Shown in pieces: positions 8,781 through 46,412 of a stretch of 64,000 nucleotides of DNA. Under the pieces are notes generated by a model. It searched no databases and was not told the origin of the DNA. It saw only the letters and a list, made by a program, of their open reading frames with translations. The stretch lies in contig JAWLBA010000001.1 of the NCBI GenBank assembly GCA_041395165.1, positions 4,925 through 68,924 on the forward strand, given 5' to 3'. A program made the position numbers and the translations under genes. Each line of letters begins with the position of its first letter. Within the stretch, counting starts at the first letter, position 1. Origin of the DNA: Verrucomicrobiia bacterium (lineage in GTDB: Bacteria > Verrucomicrobiota > Verrucomicrobiia > JADLBR01 > JAIBCM01).

Positions 8781-9386
8781 TTGGTGGGTGTTCAAATCGG
8801 AGCTACTAAGGATGTTTGGGGGTCAGAAAAAGTAGGAAATTTAGAGATTAGAGGAACGCTTGAGTTTCGCGAAAAAATTAAGCAAGCCATAGCAAATGGA
8901 GTAAAACGCCTGAATTTAAAGAGGTGTTTGAGAAAGTTAAAAATCTGCGAACATTTCAATGCGATTGAAGAAGTCCGAGACAAACATAGTGAGGCAGCAC
9001 CCAACCCTAAAGACCCTGATAGTTGGCTTGACTCTATGAATGGTAAAGGGACTAAAGCGGTGATAAGAATTAATTTAGATGATGCTGATAAAGGCCCCGT
9101 GGATGATAGAGGTTGTAAAAAATCCTCTATAGAAGCTGTTTTAGGCCACGAATTGGGTCATGCAGTTGACTTAAACGAGGGCAAGAATGACTATAAGCCT
9201 TATGGGAAAATTCCTCCCGGTGAAAAGACTGCAATGAGAGTTGAAAATGCAATTCGAAGGGATCAAGATCTTGTTCCTCGTTCGGATTATAATATTGATC
9301 CCTCAACGACGTCAGAAGCGCCAGGTTGCAGGCCTCCTCCACAAGATATAACGCCGCCTCCAAGAGGGCCTGTTATGAGCCCTTAG
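8781..9386 (+). CDS. small protein with an HExxH zinc-metallopeptidase motif (AVLGHELGHAVD); probable N-terminal extension from 8708 in another frame
   Basis: The 201-aa ORF has a TTG start, a single HELGH motif and a Pro-rich C-terminus. Upstream ATG 8708 opens MGVLKKNGVDVQESKENPVWAMLAIGG in a different frame that ends just where this ORF begins. A 9-A homopolymer lies at 8719..8727. Confidence 0.5.
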   Translation: MVGVQIGATKDVWGSEKVGNLEIRGTLEFREKIKQAIANGVKRLNLKRCLRKLKICEHFNAIEEVRDKHSEAAPNPKDPDSWLDSMNGKGTKAVIRINLDDADKGPVDDRGCKKSSIEAVLGHELGHAVDLNEGKNDYKPYGKIPPGEKTAMRVENAIRRDQDLVPRSDYNIDPSTTSEAPGCRPPPQDITPPPRGPVMSP

Positions 9387-9955: not shown

Positions 9956-9977
9956 AAGTTTTTGAAATAGTGTAACC

Positions 9978-9983
9978 TTGACA
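9978..9983 (+). promoter_or_regulatory. sigma70-like promoter TTGACAAGAAG-N12-TTTAGT upstream of secreted paralog A
   Basis: ccTTGACAagaaggaaagtttattcTTTAGTg at 9976..10007. Nearly the same TTGACAAGAAG...TTAGTA arrangement is at 12169. Confidence 0.3.
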
Positions 9984-10026
9984 AGAAGGAAAGTTTATTC
10001 TTTAGTGAAAGTTTAAGAAAAATTTT

Positions 10027-11052
10027 ATGTTAAAACAAATCTTAGTTGCGTGCTTAACCTTTACTTTCATTTCCGGTTTACTAGCCGATTCGGTGGTTTT
10101 AAATCCAGTTAAGGATAACGCGATTTACGAGGAGGGCGATTTGAGCAATGGCGCGGGTGATCATCTTTTTGCCGGACAAAATAATAATGGTAACAACCGC
10201 CGATCTTTTTTGGCTTTTACTTTTAACGCCCTTCCAACCAATGCCATTGTTACGAATGTTGTTTTGCAAATGACGAATTCGTTGAGTGCTCCGGGAAGTG
10301 GAGGACGCAATATTGCCTTGCATCGTTTGACGGGTGATTGGGGTGAGGGAACTTCCGACGCGCTGAATGCTGAAGGACAAGGAGCTGCTGCTGCGATGGG
10401 TGATGTGACTTGGACTAATGCCTTTTTTGGCGGTGCGCTTTGGACTACACCGGGTGGCGATTTTGTTGTGGCGCCTAGTGCGGTAGCATTAGTGAATTTG
10501 GAAGGCAATTATAGTTGGAGTTCGGTTGGGTTGGTAAATGATGTTAATTTTTGGCTAACTAATGGCAGCGCAAATTTCGGTTGGATTGTGATCGGTGACG
10601 AAAGCGCGACTCAAACTGCAAAACGTTTTGATAGTCGCACCAGTGGTAATCCGCCGGTTTTAACCATTGGATTTACGACAAATGCGAATGAAGTGGTGAA
10701 TCCTATTTTATCGGGTGTCACATTTGAAAAATTGAGACCCAAAACCGGAAAGCGACGTAATTTTGTGGCCTCGAAAGGCATCAAGGTAAAAGGTCGCGTT
10801 ATTACGACCAATACGATTACAGCGGGCACCGCATTTTTACAATTTGGCGCAAGTAACCAGACGGCTCCCGTTTCGTTGACCTTTAAAGATTTAAAGCAAA
10901 AAGGTGTTCTTGTGGGCAAAAAATTCAAAGCCAAAGGTGTCGGAGTTGGTTCGCCAGCCGGTGAGACGGCTTATGATGTGGTCATTACAGTTGGCAACGG
11001 ATTCGCCAATGCTTCGGTGACCAATACCATTGGGCTTTCTAAGATCAAATAA
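10027..11052 (+). CDS. secreted beta-rich protein, tandem paralog A (341 aa, signal peptide)
   Basis: N-terminal hydrophobic signal MLKQILVACLTFTFISGLLA. Conserved blocks NALHRLTGDWGEG, VTWTNAF, TPGGDF and GWIVIGDE are shared with the next gene. Confidence 0.75.
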   Translation: MLKQILVACLTFTFISGLLADSVVLNPVKDNAIYEEGDLSNGAGDHLFAGQNNNGNNRRSFLAFTFNALPTNAIVTNVVLQMTNSLSAPGSGGRNIALHRLTGDWGEGTSDALNAEGQGAAAAMGDVTWTNAFFGGALWTTPGGDFVVAPSAVALVNLEGNYSWSSVGLVNDVNFWLTNGSANFGWIVIGDESATQTAKRFDSRTSGNPPVLTIGFTTNANEVVNPILSGVTFEKLRPKTGKRRNFVASKGIKVKGRVITTNTITAGTAFLQFGASNQTAPVSLTFKDLKQKGVLVGKKFKAKGVGVGSPAGETAYDVVITVGNGFANASVTNTIGLSKIK

Positions 11053-11097
11053 TTTTTTCGTCGACGCGAAGAGGAATTTCGCTAGAAAAGCAAAGTT

Positions 11098-12096
11098 ATG
11101 AAAAGAATTTTGCTAGCAGTTAGCCTATTGATTCCTACTTTATTTTTGCAGGCCGCCACGTTGGATTTAGTTCCCACAAAAGACACCACGATTTATCAAG
11201 ATGGTGAATTAAGTAATGGCGGAGGAAGCCGATTAATTATTGGAGCGGATGGCATGCAAAGTCCGAGGCGCTCTCTGTTACAGTTCGATTTTAGCGCGAT
11301 CCCTGTTGATGCAGTCATTACGAATGCTGCCTTGAGACTGGATTGTGTGAGTGTGAATATGGTTGGACCGCGAGTGGCTAATTTGCATCGCTTGACACAG
11401 GCTTGGGGCGAAGGCATTGCCGTGGCAGTGGATCCGCAAATTAACGGTTCCCCCGCCAACAATGGAGATGCGACTTGGACCAATGCTTTTGTGGGGTCGG
11501 TGGCTTGGTTGAATCCGGGAGGCGATTTTGTTCAGGCGCCGAGCGCGACGGTGAATGTGGATGATGTGGGCGCTTATGTTTGGAATTCAGCTCAACTGTT
11601 AGCAGATGTGAAAACGTGGGTGACGAATGCGACAGCGAATCAAGGATGGATTGTTATCGGTGACGAAACAGCAGCCAATACTATTAAAAGTTTTGCCAGT
11701 CGTTCTTCGACTAATTCGCCTGTATTAACCGTTGGTTTTTCTACGAATGTGATTTTATCAGGCGTTACCTTTGAAAAATTGCGTCCGAAAACGGGTAAGA
11801 AAAAGAATTTTCGATCCTCCCGTGGCATTGTTGCTAAGGGGCGCGTGATTACCACAAATCAGTTGGATGGCGGTTTTGCGTTTCTGGTGATGGGTTCCAA
11901 TCAACCGCGCATGTGCCTTTTTCTAAATTCAAAGATTTGAAGAGGAAAGGCAAAGTGGTGGGCAAAAAATAAAGGCGAAAAAGTAGGGGCAGGTGTCTGG
12001 AAAGGTAAAATCGCTTATCAAGTGGTTTACGTTGTGACCAATAGTATTGGAAGTGCGTCGGTCACTAATACTTTAGCCACTTCGAAGATTAAATAA
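11098..12096 (+). pseudogene. secreted beta-rich protein, tandem paralog B; 3' end disrupted by two +1 frame changes
   Basis: ORF 11098..11940 ends ...AFLVMGSNQPRMCLFLNSKI*. Frame +1 continues HVPFSKFKDLKRKGKVVGKK*. A further +1 frame gives KGEKVGAGVWKGKIAYQVVYVVTNSIGSASVTNTLATSKIK* (to 12096). This is collinear with the paralog A C-terminus ...SLTFKDLKQKGVLVGKKFKAKGVGVG...VTNTIGLSKIK. Confidence 0.65.
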
Positions 12097-12168
12097 TTTT
12101 TAGAACCTAAAGCAGTAAATGCGTCTAGGCATAAGGTGTAAAAATTAAATTTATTTTTTCAAAACAAT

Positions 12169-12174
12169 TTGACA
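12169..12174 (+). promoter_or_regulatory. sigma70-like promoter TTGACAAGAAG-N12-TTAGTA inside an AAAACAATTTGACAAG motif
   Basis: Sequence at 12161..12200. Lies about 55 nt upstream of an ATG at 12230 that opens a degraded N-terminal region of the 12390 gene. Confidence 0.3.
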
Positions 12175-12389
12175 AGAAGCATTTTCTGAATTTAGTAACC
12201 CAATTATTTATTGTTTTGATTGAATTATGGCTGTAGGTTGTTCGTGGTGTTTTTCGTCGTGCTAGGCGTTATTTTTTGGGAGTTTCTCTCTCTGATGCTG
12301 TAGAAGATGCTATTAAATTGAAAATCAAAGTGATTAACAAAAAAATTTGATGATATACATCAAGAAATTGATAAAAAATTGAAAAAAAT

Positions 12390-13205
12390 TTGGGTGAAAG
12401 ACCTCTTTGGGATGAAAGCAGAGATTCTACTACAATCATTTTAAGGCCTCATAATAAGTTTATTAAAGACGTTGAAACAATCAAGCTCACAACGGGAAAA
12501 CATTTGTTGGAAGTAAAAGAGATAGAAACGTATTTGCAGTATTTGGCTAAACAATTGAATGAATCAGGAGGTGCTAGTGCAAAGGAAGCGAAAAAGCTTT
12601 TAGCAAAAGTGGCTGAATTGCGTAAACACGCAGAAAAAGCTGATCAATCGGCTAAAAGAGCTTTCGATATTGCCAGCAACCATGGTCAACGTTCTCAAGT
12701 AGTCAGTATTGTAGCACTTGGTGAGGCAAAAGATCATATAGCACAAGCCCAATCCATTATGTCCCAAATTTCAAATGATCCTTCTTTGAGAAATGCTATA
12801 TTGGCAGGGGCTGCTGCAAGCTATAGTCCAGGCACTTTAGAAGTGGTGACAGATGGGGTTTTGGATGCGATTGATTATGGCTTGGAAACCGCGGATGCTG
12901 TGGAATGTCTTTCTACGTTAGGAGTGAGTTGTGCGGTAGATGCCGGATTGGAGTATGCTTTGGATAAAGCGATTGAAGTTGCTGCCCCCGTTGTAGAGCC
13001 TATTGCTAGCGAAGTGATGGACCGAGGAGGTCAGGGCATGGCAACAGTTGTCGGAGGTGCTAGTGCGTTAGTCAATAAAGCAAGTAAACAACTTAACGAA
13101 AAGGTGGGAACGAAGTTGGAAGCGGCGTTTCAAGTTCCTCAGAAAGCGGCTTACAACGTTGCGGAGCGTGCCACTGGTGGGTTGTGGCCAAGTTTTTCAC
13201 CTTAA
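12390..13205 (+). CDS. distant member of the minus-strand paralog family (C-module VECLSTLGVSCAVD...NEKVGTKLEAAF...GGLWPSFSP); N-terminus probably degraded upstream (12228..12389)
   Basis: 271-aa ORF with TTG start. Alignable to P2 and P3 in the C-module (AETVECLGGYNPFC / ADAVECLSTLGVSC; GEKAGAKLQEAF / NEKVGTKLEAAF). Upstream, three short coiled-coil-like ORF fragments lie in different frames. Confidence 0.55.
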   Translation: MGERPLWDESRDSTTIILRPHNKFIKDVETIKLTTGKHLLEVKEIETYLQYLAKQLNESGGASAKEAKKLLAKVAELRKHAEKADQSAKRAFDIASNHGQRSQVVSIVALGEAKDHIAQAQSIMSQISNDPSLRNAILAGAAASYSPGTLEVVTDGVLDAIDYGLETADAVECLSTLGVSCAVDAGLEYALDKAIEVAAPVVEPIASEVMDRGGQGMATVVGGASALVNKASKQLNEKVGTKLEAAFQVPQKAAYNVAERATGGLWPSFSP

Positions 13206-13284
13206 CAGTAAGGGTGGAGCTGGAGTTCCTGAAACATTTTCAAGGCTTGCCAAATTGCTTTGTGATGCGCTTTGATAGCGTGTT

Positions 13285-14361
13285 ATGCGCGAAGCCTCTT
13301 TAAATTTTCTTCAAACGTTATTGGAAACTCCATCGCCTTCGGGTTTTGAAACGAAAGGGCAACGGGTTTGGTTGGATTATGTTTCAAAATTCGCTGATGA
13401 GGTGGAAACCGATAGTTATGGCAACTGTTTTGCGATTTTGAATCCGAAAGGAACGCCGAAGGTTTTGTTAGGTGGTCATAGTGATGAGTTGGGGTTTATG
13501 GTGAATTATATTTCGGATGCGGGATTTATTTATTTTAAAGGAATTGGTGGAGTGGATAATACGTTGATTCGCGGTCAACGTGTCACGGTGCATGGTCGCA
13601 AAGGGTCTGTGGCGGGTGTGACGGGTTTATTGGCGATTCATTTGCAAGAGTCGGATGATCGAAAGAAGGTGCCAGGTATTCATGAGATGTATATTGATAT
13701 CGGAGCAAATTCAAAAAAAGAGGCGGAGGCCCTCGTGCAAGTGGGTGATGCGATTACTTATAGCGCAGGGTTTCAATTTTTGGGAAAAGAAAAAAATCGT
13801 ATTGCGGCTCGCGGTTGCGATAATCGAATTGGCACTTTTGCTGCTGCGGAGGGTTTGCGGCTGGCATTTGAGAATCGTAAAAATTTGAAAGCGTGTGTGG
13901 TGGCAGCTTCAACCATTCAGGAAGAAAATGGTCTTTATGGTGCGAGCATGGCGGGCTATCGGGTGAAACCGGATGTGGCATTGGTGGTGGATGTGACGCA
14001 TGCCACGGATATTCCCTCCTGTTCCAAAGAAAAATTTGGCGATGTTAAGCTGGGTAAAGGGCCTGTAATAAGTTTTGGAAGTGCGAATCATCCGGTGATT
14101 AATGAGCGTTTAGAAAAAGTTGCCGCTCAACATAAGATTGCATTACAGCGAGAAATTAATCCTAGATGGACGGGCACCGATGCTGATGCGATCTTTATTC
14201 AACACGGTGGTATTCCAACAACGAGTATTGGGTTGCCGAATCGTTACATGCACTCTCCGGTAGAAGTGATTGAACTGAGTGATTTGGAAGCGGTCGGTAA
14301 TTTATTGGGACATTTTGTTTTGGACTTGAAATCAGATGAAACGTTCCAAGTTAAAATATAA
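13285..14361 (+). CDS. M42 family metallopeptidase (FrvX / glutamyl aminopeptidase-like)
   Basis: 358-aa ORF with GGHSDELG, CDNRIG and the other M42 hallmark motifs. Confidence 0.85.
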   Translation: MREASLNFLQTLLETPSPSGFETKGQRVWLDYVSKFADEVETDSYGNCFAILNPKGTPKVLLGGHSDELGFMVNYISDAGFIYFKGIGGVDNTLIRGQRVTVHGRKGSVAGVTGLLAIHLQESDDRKKVPGIHEMYIDIGANSKKEAEALVQVGDAITYSAGFQFLGKEKNRIAARGCDNRIGTFAAAEGLRLAFENRKNLKACVVAASTIQEENGLYGASMAGYRVKPDVALVVDVTHATDIPSCSKEKFGDVKLGKGPVISFGSANHPVINERLEKVAAQHKIALQREINPRWTGTDADAIFIQHGGIPTTSIGLPNRYMHSPVEVIELSDLEAVGNLLGHFVLDLKSDETFQVKI

Positions 14362-14366
14362 AGGAA

Positions 14367-14750
14367 ATGATGATCACAAAATTTTTGCACACTCGTTATC
14401 GCGTGAGCGATTTGGAAAAAACGATAAACTTTTATCGCGATGTTTTGGGTTTGAAAGAAGTGTCTCGTCACGAATCGCCGCGTGGTTCTAAATTGGTTTT
14501 TTTTGCCGTGCCCAATAGCGAAGAGCAGATCGAAATTTCTTATTATCCGCCGAGCGGTCCGGTGCAGGTGCAAGCGGATTTAACGCATCTGGCGTTTGAG
14601 GTGGAGGATTTGAATGCTTTTTCAAAAGTGCTAGAGAAAAAGGGTTATCCTTTAAGCGATGGACCCACGGAAACTTCGTCGGGTAATCTCATTGCTTTTA
14701 TTGATGCGCCGGAAGGATATGAAATTGAATTGATTCAACGAAAAAAATAA
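14367..14750 (+). CDS. VOC family protein (glyoxalase I-like)
   Basis: 127-aa ORF of typical glyoxalase / bleomycin-resistance fold size, with the HxxxxV...E pattern. Confidence 0.75.
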   Translation: MMITKFLHTRYRVSDLEKTINFYRDVLGLKEVSRHESPRGSKLVFFAVPNSEEQIEISYYPPSGPVQVQADLTHLAFEVEDLNAFSKVLEKKGYPLSDGPTETSSGNLIAFIDAPEGYEIELIQRKK

Positions 14751-14763
14751 TATCTTAAAAATC

Positions 14764-15432
14764 ATGGCTCGACCCACCCTCATAGCTCCTTCGATTTTAG
14801 CAGGGAACATGGCGCACTTAGGCGCGGAGGCTAAACGTGCCGAGCTGGCGGGCGCGAATTGGTTGCACGTGGATATTATGGATGGCCATTTTGTGCCGAA
14901 TTTGACGTTTGGCCCGGCAACGGTGGCGGCATTAAAGCGCGAGACGCAGTTGCCTTTGGATGTTCATTTGATGCTGATGCGGCCTGATCTATATGCAGCA
15001 GCTTTTTTAAAGGCTGGTGCGGATATTTTAACGGTGCATGTGGAGGCGGAGCATGAGATCGAAAGAACATTGTCTTTTATTCGTGAAAAGGGGGCGCGCT
15101 GCGGATTAGCCTTGAATCCAGGAACTCCTTTGGATGAGGTGAAACCTTATCTGCAACAGATCGATTTATTATTATGCATGACGGTAAATCCAGGTTTTGG
15201 TGGGCAAAGCTTAATCACAGAAGTGTTTCAGAAAACAAAACAAGCCCAACAATGGCGTGATGAGATGGGATTAGATTTTGAAATCGAGGTAGATGGGGGT
15301 GTGAATTTAGAGAATGCTTCGGAATGCGTTGCTCAAGGTGCGAATGTTTTAGTAGCGGGCACTTCACTCTTTGGAGCAGAAGATATGGCCGAAGCCATTG
15401 CAAGGATGGCTAAATGTAGTCATGTGGGATGA
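14764..15432 (+). CDS. rpe: ribulose-phosphate 3-epimerase
   Basis: 222-aa ORF with PSILAGN, HVDIMDGHFVPN and VDGG motifs. Confidence 0.9.
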   Translation: MARPTLIAPSILAGNMAHLGAEAKRAELAGANWLHVDIMDGHFVPNLTFGPATVAALKRETQLPLDVHLMLMRPDLYAAAFLKAGADILTVHVEAEHEIERTLSFIREKGARCGLALNPGTPLDEVKPYLQQIDLLLCMTVNPGFGGQSLITEVFQKTKQAQQWRDEMGLDFEIEVDGGVNLENASECVAQGANVLVAGTSLFGAEDMAEAIARMAKCSHVG

Positions 15433-15447
15433 TTTTTTACTTAAAAT

Positions 15448-15453
15448 TTGACA
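15448..15453 (+). promoter_or_regulatory. sigma70-like -35 TTGACA in an AAAATTTGACAA motif, 62 nt upstream of the 15515 start
   Basis: ttaAAAATTTGACAAttattttttgtggaatttattg at 15441..15476. The same 12-mer occurs at 17907..17918. Confidence 0.35.
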
Positions 15454-15514
15454 ATTATTTTTTGTGGAATTTATTGTTGGGAGTAATATTTTTTATCTAA
15501 AGGAATAGACAATA

Positions 15515-17854
15515 ATGAGTGGTTTAGCGACTGGAGCGAGAGTGGTTCGTGGGGTGGGTATTGTTGCGGGTGCTACGAGTCGCGTGAGTCGAGCAAAAAG
15601 ATCATTAGATTTAGTCTTAAGGCGCATGGTGGATGCGGAAGCTCGAGTAACAAGCGCCAGAATTGCGTTGGCTGGTGTTGATGGCGCAACTTCTACTGGC
15701 GCTGGCTATCTTGCTAGACAGCGAGTTGCGGTTGCTTTGGCCAGACGGAATTATTCGAATGTAGCAAAGCGTGGTGCTGTGGCAGCGGAGCGCTTTGCAG
15801 AGGCTAAAGAAGCAGAAGCGCTTCGCTTAGCGGAAGCAGCTCGGACAGCTCATCGAACGGGAGCGCCTAGTGATGTTATAGCTCGTTTGGACTGTATTGA
15901 AGGGGAAAGAGTAGCCCATGAAAAAGTGGTTAATGCAAGGGAGACAGTGGACAGGGCTCATGGTGATTGGTCAGTAAAAAATAACAGTCCAACTGCTGTT
16001 GGGGAGCGTGAAAAGGCTCAAAAAATTTTGGAAAAAGCGGAACGTGATCTTGCAGAAGCAGAGGCTGATTTCGAAATGAAACGTGCTTTAGCGAAACAAG
16101 CTCGTCAGCGGCGTTTGGCCTCAGTTCAAGGACGTCGTATTTCAGAAGATTTCGGTATAGCTGAGCCTGCTAATATTTTTGAGAGCGCAGAAGCCGCGGC
16201 AGTTGAGGCTGAGGAAGCTAGAAAAATGGCTGATCAATTATTTCGTGAGTCAAGAAGTGCTGAAGCAGCGGTAATAATCGCAGAAAAAGGAATTTTTGAT
16301 GATTTAGAAGCAGGCGTAATCGAAGGTGTGCTTGGGAGAGCTACTGCTGGTGATGCGGTGGCGCAGCAAGAAGTGAAGCAAATTGCAGGCATCGCGAGGC
16401 GCGAAGCAGATAGATTAGTTGCTGAGGCTGATATGCTTCAAGAGAGTCTATTAAGGGCTGAAGCAAATGCTGAACAAGTAACCGCTGACTATAACAGATT
16501 AAAAGAAGCTGTTGAAGGATACGAAGCTACTGCGAATTCTACAGGTGAAATACCAACCGATATTAATCAATTCATTGCGCAAGCGGAGGTAGCTAAAGAG
16601 GCAGCGGATCAAGCTGCATTTTATCAACTTCAACTCGGAATGAGTGAGGTGTTAGATGAAAAAGCAACATTGGAATTATTTAATGCCCGTATTGCGTTGT
16701 CTAATGCTCAAACAAGAGCTGCACGGGCCATTGGGGTTGCTGCTCGGGCTGAATATGTTTCAGCTAGCACGGGAGCAACTTTAGAAGAAGTGAATCAAGC
16801 CATGGGACGTTTGTCTAGAGCTCGCTCGGCCCTTAAAAGAGCACGTTTTCAAGCTGATGAAGCTGCTACAAAAGCAAAAAATTTAGATGATTGGGCAGCT
16901 AGGCCTGGAGCTACCGAGGCAGATCGTGCAGCAGCCCATGAAGCCAAACAAAAAGCGGGTCAAGCGGCTGAAGCGGCTGGGTTAGCCAAGTTTCAATACG
17001 ATATGGAACGTCGCGTTGCTAGGGGTTTGACCATTGCGGCAGGTGTAGCAGCTAGCTATTCTATTCCAACAGATGCTGAGGCATTAGTGGAGGATGCTCA
17101 ATTTGAGTTTAGGGATGCGAGTGTAAAAGCTCGGCTTGCAAACGAGAAGTTTTCAAAAGTAAAGGGATCGGCAGCTTCGGGTGGATCGGTCGATTATGGC
17201 ATGGCGATGGAAGAGGCGAAAAAGGCTTCTGAAGAAGCTCAGAGAGCCAGGAATGCTTATGTTCAGGCGCGCGTGACCGAGCAACGTCGTAAAGAACTTG
17301 GTGAATGGGCTGACACTTATTCTGAGGATGTGCCAAGTGAAGAAGGAGTTTCAGTTTTAGATGGAGAAAGTGGTGCTTCTACAGATTTTTCCGCTGGAAC
17401 TTTGGATCAGGTAAGTCTTGATGGCACAGGTTTGGTAGCTTTAGGACAGCTGATTTATGAAGTGCCTGGTCTTGTGCAAGCAACTGGCGAAGGTTTGAAC
17501 GAGTTGAGTAATGGTATAAAAGAAGAACTGCTAAAACGAGAAGTGGCTTATTACAATTTTAAAACAGCCCGAAAAGTTGAGGATGATATCGAGATTGAAG
17601 AAAGCAGTGTGCATCCCTCTCCTGTTGTTGTTCCTAATCAAGAGGAGCCTTTGGATCGAAGAACGCTTTTGGCTGAAGCTGGAAGTAAAAAAGATTTGGG
17701 TCAAAAAGATAACAGTAGAGTATGGACGGCAATTGAGGAGGCGAACCAATCGGTAGATTCTTCTCTTGAAAACAATATGTGCTCAGCCGATGAACCCAAT
17801 ATGAGTGTTGATCCTTCTTTGCAACCGCAATTATCCATGGCTCCTAAGGTATAA
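15515..17854 (+). CDS. large Ala/Glu/Arg-rich coiled-coil protein (779 aa), family 2, C-terminal tail ...NMSVDPSLQPQLSMAPKV
   Basis: Long low-complexity helical ORF. The C-terminal 60 aa align with the C-terminus of the 18864..20435 ORF. Confidence 0.75.
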   Translation: MSGLATGARVVRGVGIVAGATSRVSRAKRSLDLVLRRMVDAEARVTSARIALAGVDGATSTGAGYLARQRVAVALARRNYSNVAKRGAVAAERFAEAKEAEALRLAEAARTAHRTGAPSDVIARLDCIEGERVAHEKVVNARETVDRAHGDWSVKNNSPTAVGEREKAQKILEKAERDLAEAEADFEMKRALAKQARQRRLASVQGRRISEDFGIAEPANIFESAEAAAVEAEEARKMADQLFRESRSAEAAVIIAEKGIFDDLEAGVIEGVLGRATAGDAVAQQEVKQIAGIARREADRLVAEADMLQESLLRAEANAEQVTADYNRLKEAVEGYEATANSTGEIPTDINQFIAQAEVAKEAADQAAFYQLQLGMSEVLDEKATLELFNARIALSNAQTRAARAIGVAARAEYVSASTGATLEEVNQAMGRLSRARSALKRARFQADEAATKAKNLDDWAARPGATEADRAAAHEAKQKAGQAAEAAGLAKFQYDMERRVARGLTIAAGVAASYSIPTDAEALVEDAQFEFRDASVKARLANEKFSKVKGSAASGGSVDYGMAMEEAKKASEEAQRARNAYVQARVTEQRRKELGEWADTYSEDVPSEEGVSVLDGESGASTDFSAGTLDQVSLDGTGLVALGQLIYEVPGLVQATGEGLNELSNGIKEELLKREVAYYNFKTARKVEDDIEIEESSVHPSPVVVPNQEEPLDRRTLLAEAGSKKDLGQKDNSRVWTAIEEANQSVDSSLENNMCSADEPNMSVDPSLQPQLSMAPKV

Positions 17855-17911
17855 TAAATAGTTGTAACGCAGTAATCTTTATTTGTCCCAGAGGCATTTT
17901 ATTTTTAAAAT

Positions 17912-17917
17912 TTGACA
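17912..17917 (+). promoter_or_regulatory. sigma70-like -35 TTGACA in AAAATTTGACAA; a TATATAAT lies at 17944..17951; 74 nt upstream of the 17991 start
   Basis: Identical 12-mer to the one at 15444..15455. Confidence 0.35.
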
Positions 17918-17990
17918 AAGATTTTTTATGAGTTTTATTGCTTTATATAATAAGGAAACTATTTTGTCTTAAATTGGAAGGATAAATCTA

Positions 17991-18815
17991 ATGGCTGTTC
18001 CTGCTATTCTTCGTGGTGCTGCGGCAGTTGCCCGCTTGCGCCGTCTTCAAAGAGCCGTTAGCCAAACCGGAGGGCGTGCTATGGTTCTTAACTCACGGGC
18101 CTATGCTATTGAAGGTGGGGTCACTGCTTTTCGAACGACGGCATCAGGAAGAGGAGCGATTGCAGCCGTTAATCCTCGTGTGGGCTATGCAATAATGAGA
18201 CGACGTGAAGCTCTTATGCGAAGAGGTCATGCTACGGTTTCACAACATTATGCGGATGCCCTCGTGGAGCAAGCAAATCGTCTCAGAGAAGCCGCTCAAG
18301 CCGTTAAAGTAAGCGCAGATGAGGCGAGACAAGGTCAAAGGTTCTCTGAACAATTGGACCGCGTTGCGCAAGAAACCGCGGAACATGTGCGGCATCCGAC
18401 AGATGAGATTATTGCTAAATATTCGGCTTATCGTTTTGATCCTGGCACACCTCGTCAAGAGGTAATAGATTTTATCATACAAAAGGCTGAGGCTGATCGA
18501 GTTTATGCTGATCAGTTTAGGCGTTATGCTGAAAATTTGGCTATTAAAGCTCGGGAATCAGCTAATAGACTGCGTGAAATTGAGCAAGAAATTGTAGAGG
18601 CTCATGGTAGGCCTTTAACTTTGGATGAGCTTGAAGCTTTGGCAATTGAAAAGGCTCAAGACGCTGAAAAGGCAAGAGAAGCAGTGAAAGTTTATAATAA
18701 AAAAGCGGATGAAGCTGGAGCCGAAGCACTAGAGGATGCGGATAAAGCGCTTCAAACGGTGGTGGCGAGCGATGCGGCTTTAGCTCAAAGGGAGGCTGAG
18801 GCTTTGCTGATATAG
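17991..18815 (+). CDS. Ala/Glu/Arg-rich coiled-coil protein, N-terminal part of a family-2 gene (274 aa)
   Basis: The N-terminus (AVPAILRGAAAVARLRRLQRAV) resembles the N-terminus of the 779-aa protein. It is in the same reading frame as the following ORF, separated from it by two TAG codons. Confidence 0.6.
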   Translation: MAVPAILRGAAAVARLRRLQRAVSQTGGRAMVLNSRAYAIEGGVTAFRTTASGRGAIAAVNPRVGYAIMRRREALMRRGHATVSQHYADALVEQANRLREAAQAVKVSADEARQGQRFSEQLDRVAQETAEHVRHPTDEIIAKYSAYRFDPGTPRQEVIDFIIQKAEADRVYADQFRRYAENLAIKARESANRLREIEQEIVEAHGRPLTLDELEALAIEKAQDAEKAREAVKVYNKKADEAGAEALEDADKALQTVVASDAALAQREAEALLI

Positions 18816-18863
18816 CTGGGCGAGGTGCTTCGGTGGAAGAGACAATTTTAGAAGTCCAAATCC

Positions 18864-20435
18864 GTGACGCTAATCAAAGGGCTACATTACTTGGCTGAGA
18901 GAATGCGTGAACATCCGCGTCCGGCATCTGAACTTAGAGCAGAGGTTCAAACAGCTCGTGATGCACTTAGATTAGCGCGGGATCGAGAGAGTTGGGTGCG
19001 GGGTGAATTAGCTACCGCTGTGCCTGGTTCGCGGAGAGCTGAGGAATTAACTAAAAAATTGCGTGACCTTGAGATAGAGATTGATACGCATAGTCAAGTA
19101 GCAAACTATGCCCAATACGAGGCAGAGGCTGTGGAAGATTTAGCCTATGCGCTAAACAATAAACCATCTTATGTCGATGGTGCGAGGTCTAGAACTGCTT
19201 CAGCGTTTGAGTCAGAAGCTCGTATTAAATTGATTGCGAGTGGGCAAACCGATCTCGAAGTTATCAACACTGCTGCTAGGCGTGTGGCTGAAGCGCGTGT
19301 GGCGTTAGTCGAAGCGCGGATTGAAGCTGTGCATGCGGCAGAGCGCGCTAAGGAAACTCGAAAGATTGCTAATCGTCCTGGCGCGACTCATCCTCAACGA
19401 GCATTAGCTGAAGAGGCAGAAAAAAAAGCTACTGAAAAAGCTCAAGCATTGGAACACGCTAACGAGGCCTACACTAAACAAGTTACAACCATTAGTGTTG
19501 GTGGTATTACTTTGGCAACGCTTATTACAGTTCCCAGTAAAGCTGAGGCAGCGCGTGAAGAGGCTCAAAAGGCGGGGGCCGAAGCCAGAATGATTAATGA
19601 AAGGCTAGCTCAGGTGCGTGAAGCGGCTGCTCGTCCTGATGCTGGATTGAGTGAACTTGTGACGGTGGTCGGCGCTGCATTTAAAGCGCACGCGGCTAAA
19701 GAGAGTGCTGAACGTGCTTATGATAAATATGTAGAGGCTCGTGTGGATGAACAGATCGCAGCCGAGGAGGCTGCCAAAGTAAAAGTAGAACAAGAAGCTG
19801 AAGCTAGAGGAGAAGCTTATTTTAAAAGCACTGCAGAAGGCATGGCTTGGGAAGGCATGAAGTGGGTTGGAAAAGGTGTTATGACTGGTCTCCATTATAC
19901 CGAGGAAGGGTTGGCTTACGCTGTGGATGGGTGGGGCTATATGATGGGAATGCCTAATCCTATAGCTAGTCCCGACACTAGCGTTGACATAGGTCATGGC
20001 TTACTCGCAGCTCAAGATGCTATCATAGAACATGTAGCTGCGCCAGTCGCGATCGCAACTTATGAAGGAGCTGTTGCTGAAGCCAATCCTATGGCTCCAC
20101 TTGAAGAGGCCAGACAACGTGAAGAAAAAGCTGCAGAAAGATTTGCTAGCGCTGCTGAAATCAGGGACGATGATGAAATTGACAAGTCACTCCAAGGTAA
20201 GTTTCCTAATGTTATCATCATTCCTGATGCGGAACCTCCAGCACCAACTTTAGTGGCAGAAGCTAAAAGAAAAAAGAGAAGCGATGAAGCATGGGCCAAA
20301 ATTGAAGAAAAAGCGCAACAGTCCATTGAAAGAAATATGTCTCTAATCGCAGAAGGTGAACCTGAAGGGGAACTTAATATGAGTGTTGATCCTAGTTCGG
20401 CTCCTTCGCCTTCAACCTCTGCGCCGAAAGTTTAG
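18864..20435 (+). CDS. Ala/Glu-rich coiled-coil protein, C-terminal part of a family-2 gene (523 aa, GTG start), tail ...LNMSVDPSSAPSPSTSAPKV
   Basis: The C-terminal block WAKIEEKAQQSIERNMSL...NMSVDPS...APKV matches the 779-aa protein. Confidence 0.6.
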   Translation: MTLIKGLHYLAERMREHPRPASELRAEVQTARDALRLARDRESWVRGELATAVPGSRRAEELTKKLRDLEIEIDTHSQVANYAQYEAEAVEDLAYALNNKPSYVDGARSRTASAFESEARIKLIASGQTDLEVINTAARRVAEARVALVEARIEAVHAAERAKETRKIANRPGATHPQRALAEEAEKKATEKAQALEHANEAYTKQVTTISVGGITLATLITVPSKAEAAREEAQKAGAEARMINERLAQVREAAARPDAGLSELVTVVGAAFKAHAAKESAERAYDKYVEARVDEQIAAEEAAKVKVEQEAEARGEAYFKSTAEGMAWEGMKWVGKGVMTGLHYTEEGLAYAVDGWGYMMGMPNPIASPDTSVDIGHGLLAAQDAIIEHVAAPVAIATYEGAVAEANPMAPLEEARQREEKAAERFASAAEIRDDDEIDKSLQGKFPNVIIIPDAEPPAPTLVAEAKRKKRSDEAWAKIEEKAQQSIERNMSLIAEGEPEGELNMSVDPSSAPSPSTSAPKV

Positions 20436-21655: not shown

Positions 21656-24600
21656 ATGCATAAATATCTCTGTCTTCTCTTGACTCTTTTTTGCTTAGAA
21701 AAAGCGCACGCCACACTTACGGAAACGGTGGATTCTTTTGAAGATGGCGAACTGCTTACCAATCCAACCTGGCAAGGAAATCTTACTAATTACGTGGTTA
21801 CTAGCTCTGGAGCATTGCATGATGTTCAATCTCTTCGCGTCAACACTTCCAACATTCTTTCCACGCTCACTTTCTCATTTGGAACCCAAACCAACCTGGG
21901 AGCAAAACTAACCGAATGGTCTTTTCTTTATCGCGACACGGAAGGAAATCCAAGTGGTGTCGCTAATAATGGTTGGCGACTTTGGTTGGTGTGCGATAGC
22001 ACGAATTTAACCAGCGCCAATGGCTACGCAATTCGTCATGGCAACACAGGCACTCCTGACAACCTAGTTCTGGTTCGAATGGAAAATGGTGCTGAAATTG
22101 TCCCCGCGCTTTTAACGAATACTGTGGATCCGAGCACCACTCTTCATTCTATTCGCGTGACCCGCTCTTACGAAGGATTATGGGAGCTTTTCATCACGCC
22201 CAGCATCACAGGCCTCGCTACCAACTCTTTTGGTACAGTCCAAGACACCACTTTTTTCAGCGGCAACGATGAGCTTAACACCAACCTCTTTTTAGCTTTG
22301 CAAGCCAGGACAACCTCTGGGGGAAACAACCCTCTCCGATTTATTTTTGATGATGTCCGCTTTGGATTTCCTTCCTATGCTTATTTAACAATAACTACCA
22401 ACATCTCCGAAGATATCGGCACCTATCAACTTACCGTACAACGACCCACCTCCATCGGCTCACTCACTGTCACGAATGTCATCGTGCAAGGCACGGCTTC
22501 CAACAATGTCGACTTTTTCATCAACTCTCTCACCAACAAAATTACCTTTAATCCAGGTGAAACATTGGCTTCACTTCCTATTATTATCACCAACAATGCC
22601 ATTGAAGATGGCAATCGCACCTTCACCAATTTTTTAACAGGACCTACAGGCGTCCAACTCAAACACATTGTTACCATTATCGATGAAGACCCCGCACGGC
22701 TCCAATTTAGCGATCCACTAGGTTTCGTAGGAGAGTCTAACCAAACCGCGATCATCTCTGTTGCGCGCACACAAAGCACCAATCTTCCCATTAGCGTGGA
22801 TGTGGTAATTACCGGTGGCACCGCAGTCAATGGCGTTCACTATCAAAACACCGGTGTCTCTAATCTTACTTGGTTAGCGGGTGAAAGCGGCACAAAATCC
22901 ATCACAATTAAAACCATAGATGACGCCAACATTAACGCCGATCGCACTATTATTCTCAGTCTCAGCAATATTATAGTAGCTGCTTACGGCTCACCCACCA
23001 ATCATACACTTACAATTCTGGACGATGAAACCACTGGCGTTACTAATTTAGCACCTGGCGAGGCAGCGATTATCGCCTACAACTCCGCTAATCCCGATGC
23101 TTTTTCCATTTATACATTAACTAACGTGCTGGCTGGCGCTCGACTTCGCTTCGCCGATCAAGGTTGGAGCAGTAGTAGCAGCTCCTGGCGCGTCGGTGGA
23201 AAAGAAGGCGCTTTAGAATATGTCGTGCCCGCTTATCTTCCTGCAGGCTCCATCGTTAATTTTACCATTACTAATTTCGGTGGCATTATTGATTCAAACC
23301 CTAAAGTCACCAGCATCGGTCCTGCTGTGGGGGGACTCAACATGGATGGCACAGAAAGCGGATTTGCCCTTACTCAACAAGGCGATCAACTTTTTCTCTT
23401 CCAAAATTATAACAACCAAACCAATTTCATTTTTGCTTATAACAATGACAGTGCCTGGGATCCTGACTCGGTTAGTTCGACGACTAGCGCATTGCCGCCG
23501 CCTTTAATAAATGGTTCCAACGCAGTCGCCGTCGGCGGGACGCTCGGCCAAGTTAGCGCTAAATACAACATGGTCACCAATCTCAGCGCTGGATTTACTC
23601 CAAAACAAGTTCTGCTTGCCATTGCCAATAGCAACAACTGGATTCTCGCTTCCACCAATCAACCTCCGCCCGTTATTCCACCCAACATGCTCGTTTTAGG
23701 AAATAACCAACCCATTTCCGATGGTGATAACACTCCCAGTGCCAGCGACTTTACTCTGTTCCCTAACACCTTATTGGGGAACAACACGATTCATACATTT
23801 GTCATTACCAATTCTGGCGGTTCCACACTCACCATTTCTAGTATTACCGAAGCATCACCTCAATTTGCCATTGGCAATCTTGCGCTACCACTCAACATTC
23901 CCACTAACAGCTCAGCAACGTTCCAAGTTCAATTCACCCCATTAAGTGCTGGCGTCTTTTCCACAACCATTTTTTGCACCAACAATTTGCTTGGACCCGC
24001 TAACCCGTACGAATTTTTGGTTCAAGGCACCGGTTTCACCAACGCAATTCCCCCTCCACCGCCACAAACTAATATTGTCACCATTACTGCTACAGATCCC
24101 GAAGCTTTTGAAGTAAATGCTGATACCGCTACCTTCACCGTCACTCGCAACTTTGCTACCAACACTCCATTAACAATTCTGTACGCGATTGCAGGCACAG
24201 CCACGGCCGGAGCTGATTACCAACCGCTCTCAGGCTCAACACAAATTTCTGCTAACGAAACCCAAAGCTCGATTATTCTCACTCCCATTTTCGATCTTCT
24301 TGAAGAAGGAACAGAAACCGTAGAGCTTTCACTTCTCCCAAGTCCTAATTATCTCATTGGCTCTCCTTCCAATGCCGTTGCCACGATCGAAGACAACACT
24401 TCAAAGATCACGGGTTTAAACGCCCCTTTCAGCGATTATAATAAAGATGGCTATTCCGACATCCTCTGGATGAACCGATCTAAAAAAGGCAGCAATCGTT
24501 CCACCCTGTCTCAAGCCTATTACATGTCCAACCTAACACTGCTTGGCATCGGCCCCACCAATGCTACCGAAAGAAAACTTAAAATTGTTGGCTCTGCCGA

Positions 24601-43821: not shown

Positions 43822-44541
43822 TTGCGTGTAAAATATTCATTTCTTGCTACAATCACCCCTTATTGCATGAATTTTCGATTCTCCTGGTTATTACCGGTTA
43901 TAGCAATGGGATGGTTGGTGGGTTGCGCAAGTTTGGATGAAGCCGACGATTCCGACGATGTTCCGTCTCGAGAAAAATCGAAACCAACACCAAGACCGAC
44001 GACCGTGGCTTACATTAGTGTCGCGCAACAAATGATGGAAGTAGTTAGAGACGGCGTTCGTATTGCGCGTTATCCCGTTTCCACTTCTAAATATGGTCTA
44101 GGTGACGATCCGAATAGTTATAAAACGCCACTTGGAATTTTTGAAATTGCTAAAAAAATTGGTGAAGGCGTGCCGCGTGGTGGCAAGTTTTATAAACGTA
44201 AATTTACTGGAGTCGTTTTTGATTTGGATCATTACGATCCTATTCTTCATCCCGCGGAATACGATAGCATTCTCACACGCATTTTATGGTTAAACGGATT
44301 GGAATGGCGCAATCGTCGCGCTTACAATCGTGGCATTTATATTCATGGCACTAACCAAGAGCATCTCGTGGGCCGACCAGTGAGTTACGGTTGTATCCGT
44401 ATGAAGAACAATGATGTTCTTAAGCTTTTTGAATTGTTGGATGAAGGCGCTTATGTTGTTATTCGCCAAGCGCCTTTGCCTAATGGCCCTTCTTACCAAG
44501 ATTTGATTGCTCTTACCCAACGCGCCAACACTTCGGGCTAA
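43822..44541 (+). CDS. L,D-transpeptidase (YkuD domain)
   Basis: Lipoprotein-like signal with Cys (LVGCASL). Catalytic motif IYIHGT...SYGCIRM. Confidence 0.8.
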   Translation: MRVKYSFLATITPYCMNFRFSWLLPVIAMGWLVGCASLDEADDSDDVPSREKSKPTPRPTTVAYISVAQQMMEVVRDGVRIARYPVSTSKYGLGDDPNSYKTPLGIFEIAKKIGEGVPRGGKFYKRKFTGVVFDLDHYDPILHPAEYDSILTRILWLNGLEWRNRRAYNRGIYIHGTNQEHLVGRPVSYGCIRMKNNDVLKLFELLDEGAYVVIRQAPLPNGPSYQDLIALTQRANTSG

Positions 44542-46412
44542 GCAGATTCGGTAATCAACGAATTACCGCCAAATTGCAATTCATTTAATCGTCGATAAAG
44601 CACGGATTCGTTCAATAAAAATTCATGAGTGCCTCGTGCTACAACTTGACCTTGGTCTAGCACGATGATTTCATCTGCTCTTTCAATGGTGCTCAAACGG
44701 TGTGCGATGGCAATTACTGTGCGGCCAGTGGAAAATTTATCAATTGCATCTTGCACTTTTGCTGCGCTTTCCGCATCCAAAGCGCTTGTCGCCTCATCCA
44801 GCAAAAGAATTGGTGCATTTTTCAAAAAAGCGCGAGCCAAACTTAGCCGTTGTTGTTGACCACCTGAAAAACGACAACCTTTATCGCCTACAATGGTATC
44901 ATATTTTTTAGGGAGTTGCTCAATAAACTCATCAGCATGTGCCAAAGCAGCAGCTCGTTCTATAGATTCCTGGCTGGCTTTAGGTCGGCCATAGAGAATA
45001 TTTTCCCGAATACTGGCGTGAAAAAGAAAAGTTTCTTGGGAAACCAACCCAATCTGGCGACGCAACGATTCCATCTCAATATCACGAATATCTTTGCCAT
45101 CGATCAACACCCGACCTTGTTGAGGCTCATAAAAACGCATAATCAAATTGAAAATAGAACTTTTTCCCGCGCCACTCGGGCCGACGAGCGCATAAAATTT
45201 GCCTGGTTCAAAGACGAGAGAGACATTCTTTAAAGCGCGGCGTTGTTCCAAAATACGGCCTTCTTGCGGTCCTCCTTCTTCATGAAAACGGCGAATGACA
45301 TATTTAAATTTTACATTTTCCAACTCTACTCGACCCTGTGATGAATCAATAACCAAAGCATTAGGCACGTTTTCTACACTCGGTTTTGTATCTAAAATGC
45401 TAAACAAGCCTTGCAACATGGTAGATACGCGTTGAGCGGTTACATAAATGCGGCTTAAACTTTTAAAAGGGCCATACATTAAAAAAATTCCGGTCGCGAC
45501 AATGATCAAATCCTTAGCGGCCATGTGAGTATAAATCCCATAAATGATTGCTGCACCAAAACCGATCGAGGCCAGAACTTCTACACTTGGACCCACCAAT
45601 TCCATTAGCTTGCGATTTCGCATCGAAGCATTGTATTCGTCCAAGCCCGCCTTTTTGAAACGGCGGATTTCGTCTGCGCTTTGGGCGTAAGATTTGACCA
45701 CACGCATGCCCAGCAGATTTTCTTGCAAAATGGTAACTGTTTCAGCTCCAGAACTTTCCTCTGCTCTGCCTTTACGACGCACGCGGTAACCGATAACTAG
45801 GGCAGGAATTAAACTCGCGGGAATAAAAAACAACACCATTAACGTAAATTTGGGATTGTGATGAATCATGTAGCCTATCACCCCGACCAAAGCCATGGGT
45901 TGTTTTACCACATCAGCCACCAATTGGGTTAACACCATTTGAGTATTTTTAGTGCGTTGCACGACCTGAAAAATGAGTTTTCCCGATTTTTGATTTGCAA
46001 AATAATCCAAAGACAACCGCTGCAAAGCGGAAAAAATTTCCGTTTTTAAATCAAATAAAATCCGCAACCCTACCCACATTGTGCAATAAACACTGAGATA
46101 ACCCAAAACTGCCCTTACAATAAAATAAAAAGGTACTAAACTACCAGCTAACACAATTTCCCATAGAGAAAGTTGAACCTTCGATTTTTCTAAAGATTCC
46201 AAACTCCACTTTAAAAAAGGCAATAGAGCTCCCTCCCAACTTCCTGCCAGACCGCCTAGAGCCAATCCTGCAATCCAACGAAATCGATAAGGTTTTACGT
46301 ATTGTCCCAACCGTTTAAAATGTGGCCAAACTTCCAAAAAATCTTTCACGGAATGCTGTAAAAATCGCTTTAAACGGTTTTGGGAAATTTCCCGAGTATC
46401 ATTTTTTTCCAT
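44538..46412 (-). CDS. ABC transporter ATP-binding/permease (MsbA-like exporter)
   Basis: 624 aa: an N-terminal 6-TM domain followed by an NBD with Walker A GPSGAGKSS, signature LSGGQQQR and Walker B ILLLDEATSALD. Confidence 0.85.
   Translation of the reverse strand: MEKNDTREISQNRLKRFLQHSVKDFLEVWPHFKRLGQYVKPYRFRWIAGLALGGLAGSWEGALLPFLKWSLESLEKSKVQLSLWEIVLAGSLVPFYFIVRAVLGYLSVYCTMWVGLRILFDLKTEIFSALQRLSLDYFANQKSGKLIFQVVQRTKNTQMVLTQLVADVVKQPMALVGVIGYMIHHNPKFTLMVLFFIPASLIPALVIGYRVRRKGRAEESSGAETVTILQENLLGMRVVKSYAQSADEIRRFKKAGLDEYNASMRNRKLMELVGPSVEVLASIGFGAAIIYGIYTHMAAKDLIIVATGIFLMYGPFKSLSRIYVTAQRVSTMLQGLFSILDTKPSVENVPNALVIDSSQGRVELENVKFKYVIRRFHEEGGPQEGRILEQRRALKNVSLVFEPGKFYALVGPSGAGKSSIFNLIMRFYEPQQGRVLIDGKDIRDIEMESLRRQIGLVSQETFLFHASIRENILYGRPKASQESIERAAALAHADEFIEQLPKKYDTIVGDKGCRFSGGQQQRLSLARAFLKNAPILLLDEATSALDAESAAKVQDAIDKFSTGRTVIAIAHRLSTIERADEIIVLDQGQVVARGTHEFLLNESVLYRRLNELQFGGNSLITESA

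Follow-up and report, generated by a model that had tools for sequence, protein, structure and literature searches.

The 64,000-nt stretch of contig JAWLBA010000001.1 from a Verrucomicrobiia bacterium (assembly GCA_041395165.1), referred to below at its full length as the window, carries on its forward strand two neighbouring genes, A and B, which by their sequences are tandem paralogs and which encode Ala/Glu/Arg-rich, predicted all-alpha proteins with a conserved C-terminal tail. Comparison of A and B with their few relatives indicates that this tail is a portable module, present on at least four body types of 330 to 1493 aa, and it appears to act like a shared functional module. An earlier note on the stretch, made from its letters alone, had proposed a targeting or an interaction signal, and the conservation of the tail fits such a signal. 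All features of A and B given below lie on the forward strand.

The C-terminal tail module

The last 60 aa of A and B align with a Smith-Waterman score of 74, compared with 25.9 ± 5.2 in 2000 shuffles (maximum 56, z=9.2), and the similarity first seen by eye thus survives a formal alignment. When A is compared with its paralog in blocks of 60 aa, the tail is the best conserved block with 59% identity, followed by residues 421-480 with 48%, and the remaining blocks reach 15-37%.

The tail module of A (aa 688-779; 17576..17851) is acidic, Pro-rich and predicted to be disordered. It contains the motifs EDDxExE, V-V-P, W-T-A-I-E-E, N-M-C, N-M-S-V-D-P-S (17798-17818) and the C-terminal A-P-K-V. The corresponding module of B (20160..20432; aa 433-523 of B2, the 3' fragment of the gene described below) contains DDDEIDK, I-I-I-P-D, W-A-K-I-E-E, N-M-S, N-M-S-V-D-P-S and again a C-terminal A-P-K-V. 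Across the family the motifs follow each other in the order (E/R)DDxE(I/L)D, (I/V)-I-P-D, W-x-x-I-E-E, N-(M/I)-(C/S), N-M-S-(V/I)-D-P-S and P-(K/R/T)-V, the last being located at the C-terminus or one residue off. In a 10-sequence alignment the invariant residues P707, W737 and S768 (A numbering) and the near-invariant columns all fall within residues 636-779 of A, and the pattern W-x-x-I-E..N-M-(C/S)..N-M-S-V-D-P-S..P-(K/R)-V is found, with variation, in relatives from other assemblies. The net charge of the last 110 aa is -6 to -11 in the members (-10 in A) and -3 in the 1493-aa member; the same region contains 5-13 prolines per member. In AlphaFold models the tail of A has a predicted local distance difference test score (pLDDT) below 50, and the tail of B2 is mostly disordered except for a helix over W-x-x-I-E-E. 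Docking regions built on linear motifs, like C-terminal secretion signals, typically have such a disordered, acidic and Pro-rich character.

The tail is the sole part kept across the body types, which comprise B-type proteins of 805-856 aa, A-type proteins of 775-779 aa, and proteins of 330, 600 and 1493 aa. The 330-aa protein P0008 and the 1493-aa giant have only the tail region in common (E=4e-11). Because the tail is conserved between organisms, in assemblies from different samples, gene conversion within a genome is by itself not a sufficient explanation, and purifying selection on the tail is indicated.

Genes A and B

Three open reading frames (ORFs) were found where the earlier note had placed them, at 15515..17854 (779 aa, gene A), 17991..18815 (274 aa, B1) and 18864..20435 (523 aa, B2). 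Gene A is intact, has a ribosome-binding site (AAGGA), and encodes an Ala/Glu/Arg-rich, predicted all-alpha protein with a net charge of -25. Its ortholog P0001 (775 aa, 89% identity) is located in the Verrucomicrobiae metagenome-assembled genome (MAG) GCA_019694135.1, contig JAIBCM010000002.1, here designated L001. Ala, Glu and Arg together account for 38.0%, 42.0% and 39.4% of A, B1 and B2, respectively, compared with 20.1% for 32 other window ORFs, none of which exceeds 27.9%, so that the composition is as extreme as had been claimed.

The 274- and 523-aa ORFs had been described as a pair of proteins; they are one disrupted gene B of about 813 aa. This follows from L001, which keeps the gene order of the window with an intact 813-aa gene in place of B1 and B2, and from the DNA alignment of gene B, in which, relative to L001, the window lacks 1 bp near 18806 and has 1 bp in excess near 18884. 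The 5' fragment B1, which opens with the basic peptide MAVPAILRGAAAVARLRRLQR, matches residues 1-271 of the intact ortholog at 99.6% identity and terminates at a TAG stop made by the frameshift. The 3' fragment B2 starts at a GTG codon and is probably not translated by itself, since there is no clear ribosome-binding site. B1 and B2 share one reading frame, and the intervening 48 bases hold two in-frame stops. Three-frame translation shows that a different frame reads through this gap as IAGRGASVEETILEVQIRDANQRA, the same peptide as in the intact ortholog; the out-of-frame segment bounded by the two indels extends over 18806..18886. The disruption may be either a true pseudogene or an assembly error. 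In this region frame-breaking differences from L001 are confined to accessory genes, namely the second CBM96 gene, the family-1 gene F1 (both described below) and B, and the frames of the M42 peptidase, glyoxalase, rpe and A are unaffected.

BLASTP aligns residues 388-766 of A with B2 over about 435 columns at 31% identity (E=2e-23), and A with B1 marginally (E=0.006). The homology of A and B spans the C-terminal ~400 aa and extends beyond the tail; the similarity of the tails is therefore real, but it is not restricted to them as had been assumed.

Relatives and distribution

Among 1.84 billion representative proteins, searched exhaustively with HMMER, only eight relatives were found, and those traced are encoded on Verrucomicrobiota-like contigs syntenic with the window. 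The A/B family (family 2 of the earlier note) is very small and lineage-restricted, and all of its known members are from a handful of Verrucomicrobiota-like assemblies of uncultured organisms. No known family was matched in Pfam, NCBIfam, PHROGs, PADLOC or the PDB sequences, every Foldseek match against the PDB had an E value above 0.1, and a word-index homolog search with A and with the 10-sequence alignment gave only the 89% ortholog among the matches listed. Exact-sequence look-ups of A, P0002 and P0014 yielded no recorded contig. Scans for NMS[VI]DPS, AWE[GA]M and HY[AT]EE in 185,579 species-representative GTDB genomes and in metagenome contigs of the Joint Genome Institute delivered no relatives. 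The plasmid and phage collections contained no match for the family, tblastn against 50,697 phage records found nothing, and no literature was found on the assembly and run accessions. A phage tape-measure or other phage protein was considered and rejected, as there is no PHROG match for the family and the flanking genes are housekeeping genes. The MurC protein of the window is at most 68% identical to that of any of the 185,579 species representatives, the best matches being mostly Verrucomicrobiota MAGs.

In L001 the gene order is rpe, A, B and glycogen synthase. L002 (SRR25788007) contains a single 823-aa gene between rpe and glycogen synthase, the latter followed by the branching enzyme, and the same arrangement with an 805-aa gene is present in L084-L086 (DRR4385xx). 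In L003 members of 600 and 856 aa stand in tandem and adjoin a chorismate-binding gene, and L087 encodes helical proteins of 861, 330 and 1493 aa in a row. Neither a conserved neighbour nor a secretion gene was found beside the family members in the contexts of these relatives.

L087 (1134-9403), also from SRR25788007, represents a more distant relative. The first 8 bases of its 330-aa gene (P0008) are also the last 8 of the 861-aa gene, and the two may represent either a coupled pair or a single gene. The tail of the 1493-aa protein is divergent (IPYQKTPEKL...W...NFTP...AMSVEQ), and internal repeats of ~300 aa (z=10.4) indicate that this protein grew through internal duplication of such units.

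N-termini and predicted structure

The N-termini of A (MSGLATGARVVRGVG...) and of B (the B1 peptide given above) are amphipathic and contain no acidic residue in the first 20 aa. The N-terminal basic peptide of A, MSGLATGARVVRGVGIVAGATSRVSRAKRSLDLVLRRM (15515..15628), was compared in charge and hydrophobic moment with 34 other ORFs of the window. The N-terminal charge is +3 to +5 in most members of the family and +2 in A, and the helical hydrophobic moment is 0.5-0.95 in most members versus 0.32 ± 0.11 in the other ORFs. No signal peptide or transmembrane segment was found in A and B, the maximum 19-residue hydropathy being 1.5; judged by eye and hydropathy only, a Sec/Tat signal is absent, with no h-region and an N-terminal hydropathy of at most 1.05.

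With three sequences AlphaFold delivered a poor, all-helical model of A (pLDDT 52; below 50 for residues 597-681 and 692-779). The model of B2, based on a 9-sequence alignment, has a mean pLDDT of 66, and its residues 20-330 are modelled as helices of 25-61 residues linked by short turns, with a pLDDT of ~66-91 except for a dip below 50 at 211-217. The models suggest that the bodies of A and B consist of 30-60-aa helices joined by turns, with a short beta-hairpin and a disordered acidic tail. The predicted amphipathic beta-hairpin VTTISVGGITLATLITV (B2 aa 207-221; 19482..19526) lies between long helices and overlaps the low-confidence dip; it is also the top hydropathy window of B2 (1.47) and is kept in P0003, P0004 and P0007. 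The segment of small and hydrophobic residues LTIAAGVAASYSIPT in A (aa 505-519; 17027..17071) aligns with this hairpin. Trp, Gly, Met and Tyr are abundant in a conserved core (STAEGMAWEGMKWVGKGVMTGLHYTEEGLAYAVDGWG ... VDIGHGLLAAQDAIIEHV; 19821..20093), which is defined by an alignment (A9) with 33 invariant columns across five B-type proteins and has low AlphaFold confidence.

The proteins had been described as giant coiled coils with long heptad-like AEAEA stretches. Ala/Glu runs of at least five residues do exist, three or four per protein, but the long-range periodicity was not seen in a crude register scan and Fourier analysis, both judged against shuffles. In the register scan 6% (A) and 1.4% (B) of the 28-residue windows lie above the 99th percentile of the shuffles, and by the equally crude Fourier test the peak near 3.5 residues remains within the shuffle maximum in both proteins. 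The heptad-like character was thus overstated, and with AlphaFold showing helix-turn-helix segments and a beta-hairpin the description as giant coiled coils is not supported. Internal repeats were not detected in A and B (z=1.4).

Like crescentin, Scy/FilP, SMC-like rods and phasins, the proteins are large, highly helical and enriched in Ala, Glu and Arg. The family differs from crescentin, Scy/FilP and SMC-like rods in the lack of heptad or other long-range periodicity (crude test) and of SMC heads or hinge, no SMC_N, AAA or hinge match having been found for A, B1, B2 or 12 family members at E values up to 1. Unlike one continuous rod, the body in the AlphaFold models is composed of 30-60-aa helices with turns. 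From phasins the family differs in having no phasin domain: the Pfam profile gave no match, and the proteins measure 600-1500 aa versus ~100-200 aa for phasins. The match to a known structural family that, according to the earlier note, would have refuted its reading, for example to the SMC-like proteins or the phasins, was not encountered.

Sequence evolution and recombination

Between the window and L001 the housekeeping neighbours show a synonymous divergence (dS) of 0.42-0.63 and a ratio of nonsynonymous to synonymous divergence (dN/dS) of 0.03-0.08. For gene A the dS is 0.19 and the dN/dS 0.29 (0.08-0.24 in its last third), and for gene B the dS is about 0-0.04. Gene A is under relaxed constraint yet still under purifying selection. 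The view of fast-evolving bodies behind a conserved tail is correct with regard to the relaxed constraint, but not with regard to the ~400 alignable residues and the persisting purifying selection.

A 250-bp identity profile against L001 shows 97-100% DNA identity at about 17075-20390 within a background of 82-92%. This segment (17075..20390) takes in the last third of A and the whole of B, and is explained either by a recent transfer of DNA between the two lineages or by a strain-chimeric MAG. Over 9400-20400 as a whole the comparison with L001 is mosaic, with a background of 80-92% and patches of 97-100% at 9655-9904, 10405-10904 and 11155-11404 in addition to the segment just described.

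In a four-way DNA alignment a recombination breakpoint is located at the 18-mer AATATGAGTGTTGATCCT (20376..20393), which encodes NMSVDP, and the homology to L001 stops within it, at 20393. Upstream of the breakpoint gene B is ~99% like B of L001. Downstream, the 3' end of B in the window and its flank match a P0005-type paralog beside the chorismate-binding gene of L003, which has this 3' neighbour in common with the window; the B gene of L001, by contrast, has a 3' end and flank that copy those of A. Because the 3' ends of the two B genes copy different paralogs, the tail-coding DNA is a recombination site that joins gene bodies to different tails and chromosomal neighbours.

Possible function of the tail

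A typical member begins with a basic amphipathic peptide (most members), followed by an all-alpha Ala/Glu/Arg-rich body of variable length made of 30-60-aa helices with short turns, a conserved amphipathic beta-hairpin, a conserved aromatic/Gly-rich core, and a ~100-aa acidic, Pro-rich and largely disordered tail with five or six short motifs that ends in P-(K/R)-V. We infer that this tail is a portable docking module by which the proteins of the family would be recognised by one common partner. Tentatively, and as a possibility to be preferred rather than to be relied on, the tail may deliver these proteins, which lack a signal peptide, to a machine for non-Sec export or translocation, in which case they would form an effector-like family. 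Export is favoured because of the effector-like evolution of the genes, the lack of Sec signals, the acidic disordered C-terminus and an M91 effector-type peptidase encoded nearby. The effector-like traits include the rarity of relatives (eight in 1.84 billion), tandem duplication, copy-number differences between genomes, the raised dN/dS of A compared with the housekeeping genes, mosaic recombination at the tail, the disruption of B, and a 3.3-kb segment that is ~99% identical in a background of ~88%. A and B carry no Sec/Tat signal, whereas the N-termini of the neighbouring CBM96 proteins read as classical signal peptides, and the same 17-kb region contains the Peptidase_M91 gene together with two further helical orphan families, whose basic N-termini are similar and whose tails are conserved.

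Several points weigh against export. No secretion-system genes were found among the scanned ORFs of the window or beside any relative. If the tail were a general secretion signal, some of its carriers should have a recognisable enzymatic or toxin domain, but none was found to have one. Basic amphipathic helices at the N-terminus are no less characteristic of peripheral binding to the inner face of the cytoplasmic membrane (MinD, MreB, PspA, Vipp1-type), and the known signals of type I, type III and type IV secretion systems (T1SS, T3SS, T4SS) are usually more degenerate than this tail. RTX repeats are absent, with zero GG.G.D motifs in 12 members; as for the context of an RTX-type T1SS, the sole ABC exporter of the window (44538..46412) is 24 kb off and no membrane-fusion protein was seen among the scanned ORFs. 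These results bear on RTX-type substrates and not on other T1SS substrates.

A comparable arrangement is known from the X-Tfe effectors of type IV secretion in the Xanthomonadales, where the C-terminal XVIPCD domain is recognised by the coupling protein VirD4 (PMC8740702). These effectors, too, combine a conserved C-terminal module of ~100-120 aa, with several motifs and a flexible extreme tail, with differing proteins (PMC8740702). No sequence similarity is seen, however. The X-Tfe bodies are recognisable enzymes accompanied by immunity genes, whereas the bodies of A and B are orphan helical ones with no adjacent immunity-like gene, and no VirD4 or T4SS is seen here. The prediction of a mostly disordered or helical A/B tail argues against the XVIPCD fold, and the comparison is an analogy only, not a sign of membership.

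The main alternative to export is a cytoplasmic, membrane-tethered scaffold or cytoskeleton-like protein, whose N-terminal helix would bind the inner face of the membrane, whose body would act as spacer or rod, and whose tail would recruit a partner or self-assemble. The charge and hydrophobic moment of the N-termini, the absence of signal peptides and transmembrane segments from A and B, the absence of secretion genes nearby (scanned ORFs of the window) and the elongated, all-alpha predicted structure all agree with such a protein, which we regard as possible, if on the unlikely side. The lack of heptad periodicity (crude test) and of internal repeats in A and B speaks against it, as does the extreme narrowness of the family, whose copy number varies and whose genes can go missing or be disrupted with no evident compensation, which is unusual for a core structural element. 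The dN/dS several-fold above that of the housekeeping neighbours points in the same direction, and there is no Pfam match to PspA/IM30, Snf7, DivIVA or similar. Neither the PspA_IM30 or Snf7 profile nor the helical hairpin core and length of ~220-260 aa that characterize PspA, Vipp1 and ESCRT-III proteins were found in the family.

A membrane-inserting protein similar to alpha-pore-forming toxins (alpha-PFT) or translocators appears quite unlikely. In such a protein a soluble helical bundle would conceal two elements for insertion into a target membrane, an amphipathic beta-hairpin (the 'beta-tongue') and a segment of moderate hydrophobicity, as is known from ClyA, Hbl, YaxAB and Ahl or from the type III translocators. 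The placement of the conserved hairpin VTTISVGGITLATLITV by AlphaFold between long helices of pLDDT 70-91, the conservation of the two most hydrophobic windows, and the occurrence of the family genes as tandem pairs or trios would be consistent with it; genes of bi- and tripartite alpha-PFT are often tandem. Foldseek, however, gave nothing at E <0.1, and no Pfam or PDB sequence match to the HlyE, HBL, XaxA or IpaB families was obtained. The hydropathy maximum of 1.5 is under the usual transmembrane threshold, and in length the proteins exceed known alpha-PFT subunits two- to fivefold. The two hydrophobic transmembrane helices and the family profile of type III translocators (IpaB/SipB/YopB) were not found, nor was any family-profile (Pfam) or solved-member (PDB) sequence match to ClyA, Hbl, Nhe, XaxAB, YaxAB or Ahl.

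Least probable, and in our view very unlikely, is that the tail has no specific function and that its similarity is mainly a by-product of concerted evolution through gene conversion or recombination among paralog 3' ends: the breakpoint lies exactly at the NMSVDP-coding 18-mer, the B tail and downstream region copy A in L001 and a P0005-type paralog in the window, and L001 has family-1 paralogs with identical 34-aa tails of which the window lacks one copy, with the junction inside the shared tails, but conversion works only within a genome, whereas I-P-D/Y, W-x-x-I-E and M-S-V-D-P-S are kept between organisms whose bodies are 22-35% identical, the tail motifs also occur on bodies without detectable similarity, and the last third of A has the low dN/dS given above.

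Promoter regions

The promoter-like region of A (15441..15477) contains the 14-mer TTAAAATTTGACAA (15441-15454) with the -35 hexamer TTGACA at 15448-15453, followed after an 18-nt spacer by TATTGT; it scores 10/12 in a sigma-70-type scan. The region of B (17905..17945) is paralogous to it and consists of the same 14-mer (17905-17918), the 18-nt spacer and TATTGC. About 34 of 41 positions are identical between the two, including TTGACA, the spacer and TATTG(T/C), as would be expected if the upstream region was duplicated together with the gene. The exact 14-mer occurs twice in the window, upstream of A and of B, and the B version is also present upstream of the intact B of L001. A promoter 12-mer had been reported as common to both protein families of the region. 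Between A and B the match is even longer, but a dedicated element shared by both families does not exist in that form: the other families of the region share only ~10 nt, AATTTGACAA or TTGACAAGAA, which is the sigma-70 consensus -35 box with flanks. The specific shared regulatory 12-mer was therefore rejected, as it reduces to the consensus -35 box and duplicated flanks, and no evidence was found for a dedicated regulator site upstream of these families.

Neighbouring genes and other features of the window

Five minus-strand ORFs at 3457-7685 (155, 282, 330, 213 and 180 aa) form an orphan helical family, F0, without a match in Pfam, which is probably the 'family 1' of the earlier note. Its proteins have basic amphipathic N-termini (MGLGRWLRRALRL, MIKWFRKFIHN, MGFGRKIAEVLRILKR), a core VEC-LGGYNP(L/F)-C-(I/T)-LED and tails ending in WGVGF or WGVGPR; the 213- and 180-aa ORFs appear truncated relative to the L001 homologs. 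The F1 proteins (~320 aa) end in ...GTKLEAAF(R/Q)VP(E/Q)KA...GG(S)WWPSFSP and occur in only 6 clusters of a 5.8-billion-cluster protein collection. The window has one F1 copy (12227-13205, forward strand), whose 5' end is frame-disrupted by indels at 12237, 12326 and 12372, and L001 has two tandem copies (5614-6591 and 6724-7683) whose 34-aa tails are identical; the difference in copy number maps to recombination inside these shared tails. F0 and F1 are homologous (hhalign probability 97%, E=4.6e-11) and have in common basic amphipathic N-termini, an (A/T)-V-E-C-x7-C core and Trp-containing tails (WGVGF or WWPSFSP), in agreement with the earlier observation that family 1, like family 2, has conserved termini.

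Homology of F0/F1 with family 2 was also considered and is unproven, since hhalign gives 0.4-2.5% and a hidden Markov model of the F0/F1 core ranks the family-2 sequences under shuffled decoys. Local resemblances, such as GTLDQVSLDG to GTLEVVTDG and AWEGMKWVGKGVMTGLHY to GTLEVVTDGVLDAIDY, are not significant. F0/F1 and family 2 are alike in the basic amphipathic N-terminus, the helical body and the short conserved Trp-containing C-terminal tail, as well as in the -35 context, the lineage restriction and the pattern of duplication and disruption; they differ in that their homology is not significant and that F0/F1 are much shorter (155-330 aa).

A 201-aa protein encoded at 8781..9386 (forward strand) matches the Pfam family Peptidase_M91 'Effector protein' (NleD-like zinc protease; HELGH) with E=1.6e-7 and 32 bits versus a cut-off of 25, and a homolog is located at the equivalent place in L002. 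It is conceivable, though improbable, that the region from 3.4 to 20.4 kb is an effector island of an uncultured Verrucomicrobiota clade, in which F0, F1 and the A/B family would be substrates of one undescribed export or targeting pathway that reads a basic amphipathic N-terminal helix plus family-specific C-terminal peptides (...NMSVDPS...PKV, ...WGVGF and ...WWPSFSP).

Two tandem CBM96 proteins are encoded at 10027-11052 and 11098-12095 (forward strand). Relative to L001 the second gene has three 1-bp deletions (11903, 11964 and 11978; net -3); its ORF halts at 11940, and the homologous C-terminus (...SASVTNTLATSKIK) runs to about 12095 in another frame. Further downstream, also on the forward strand, are a 1200-aa protein with Calx-beta and FG-GAP repeats (21656-25258), whose N-terminus is signal-peptide-like by eye, and a 744-aa subtilase with Calx-beta domains (48397-50631). 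Both are probably secreted or surface proteins and are unrelated to the finding on A and B. The rest of the window is ordinary housekeeping sequence.

GC skew is mostly positive at 1-20 kb, mostly negative at 20-48 kb and positive at 48-60 kb, and the minus strand encodes dnaN (40472-41569) and a recF-like protein (39461-40468). The change of sign at 48 kb has an origin-like appearance, and the one at 20 kb, which falls at the recombinant 3' end of B, is possibly the trace of a rearrangement. Some of the positive skew at 10-20 kb could instead result from the purine-rich coding of the Ala/Glu/Arg-rich genes.

Significance

For annotation, the 274- and 523-aa ORFs belong together as one disrupted gene. 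The family is an uncharacterised orphan, and the theme of variable proteins with a common C-terminal recognition module is already known. Should the proteins be ordinary intracellular scaffolds, they would merely be a lineage-specific orphan family, of interest mainly for annotation. The locus also illustrates how conserved tail-coding DNA can serve as a recombination site, through which paralogs can exchange gene bodies, promoters and even their chromosomal surroundings. If the tail is a recognition signal, the pattern W-x-x-I-E ... N-M-S-V-D-P-S ... P-K/R-V would give a sequence handle for listing the substrates of a targeting or export route in a lineage that, to judge from its MurC, is deep and uncultured.

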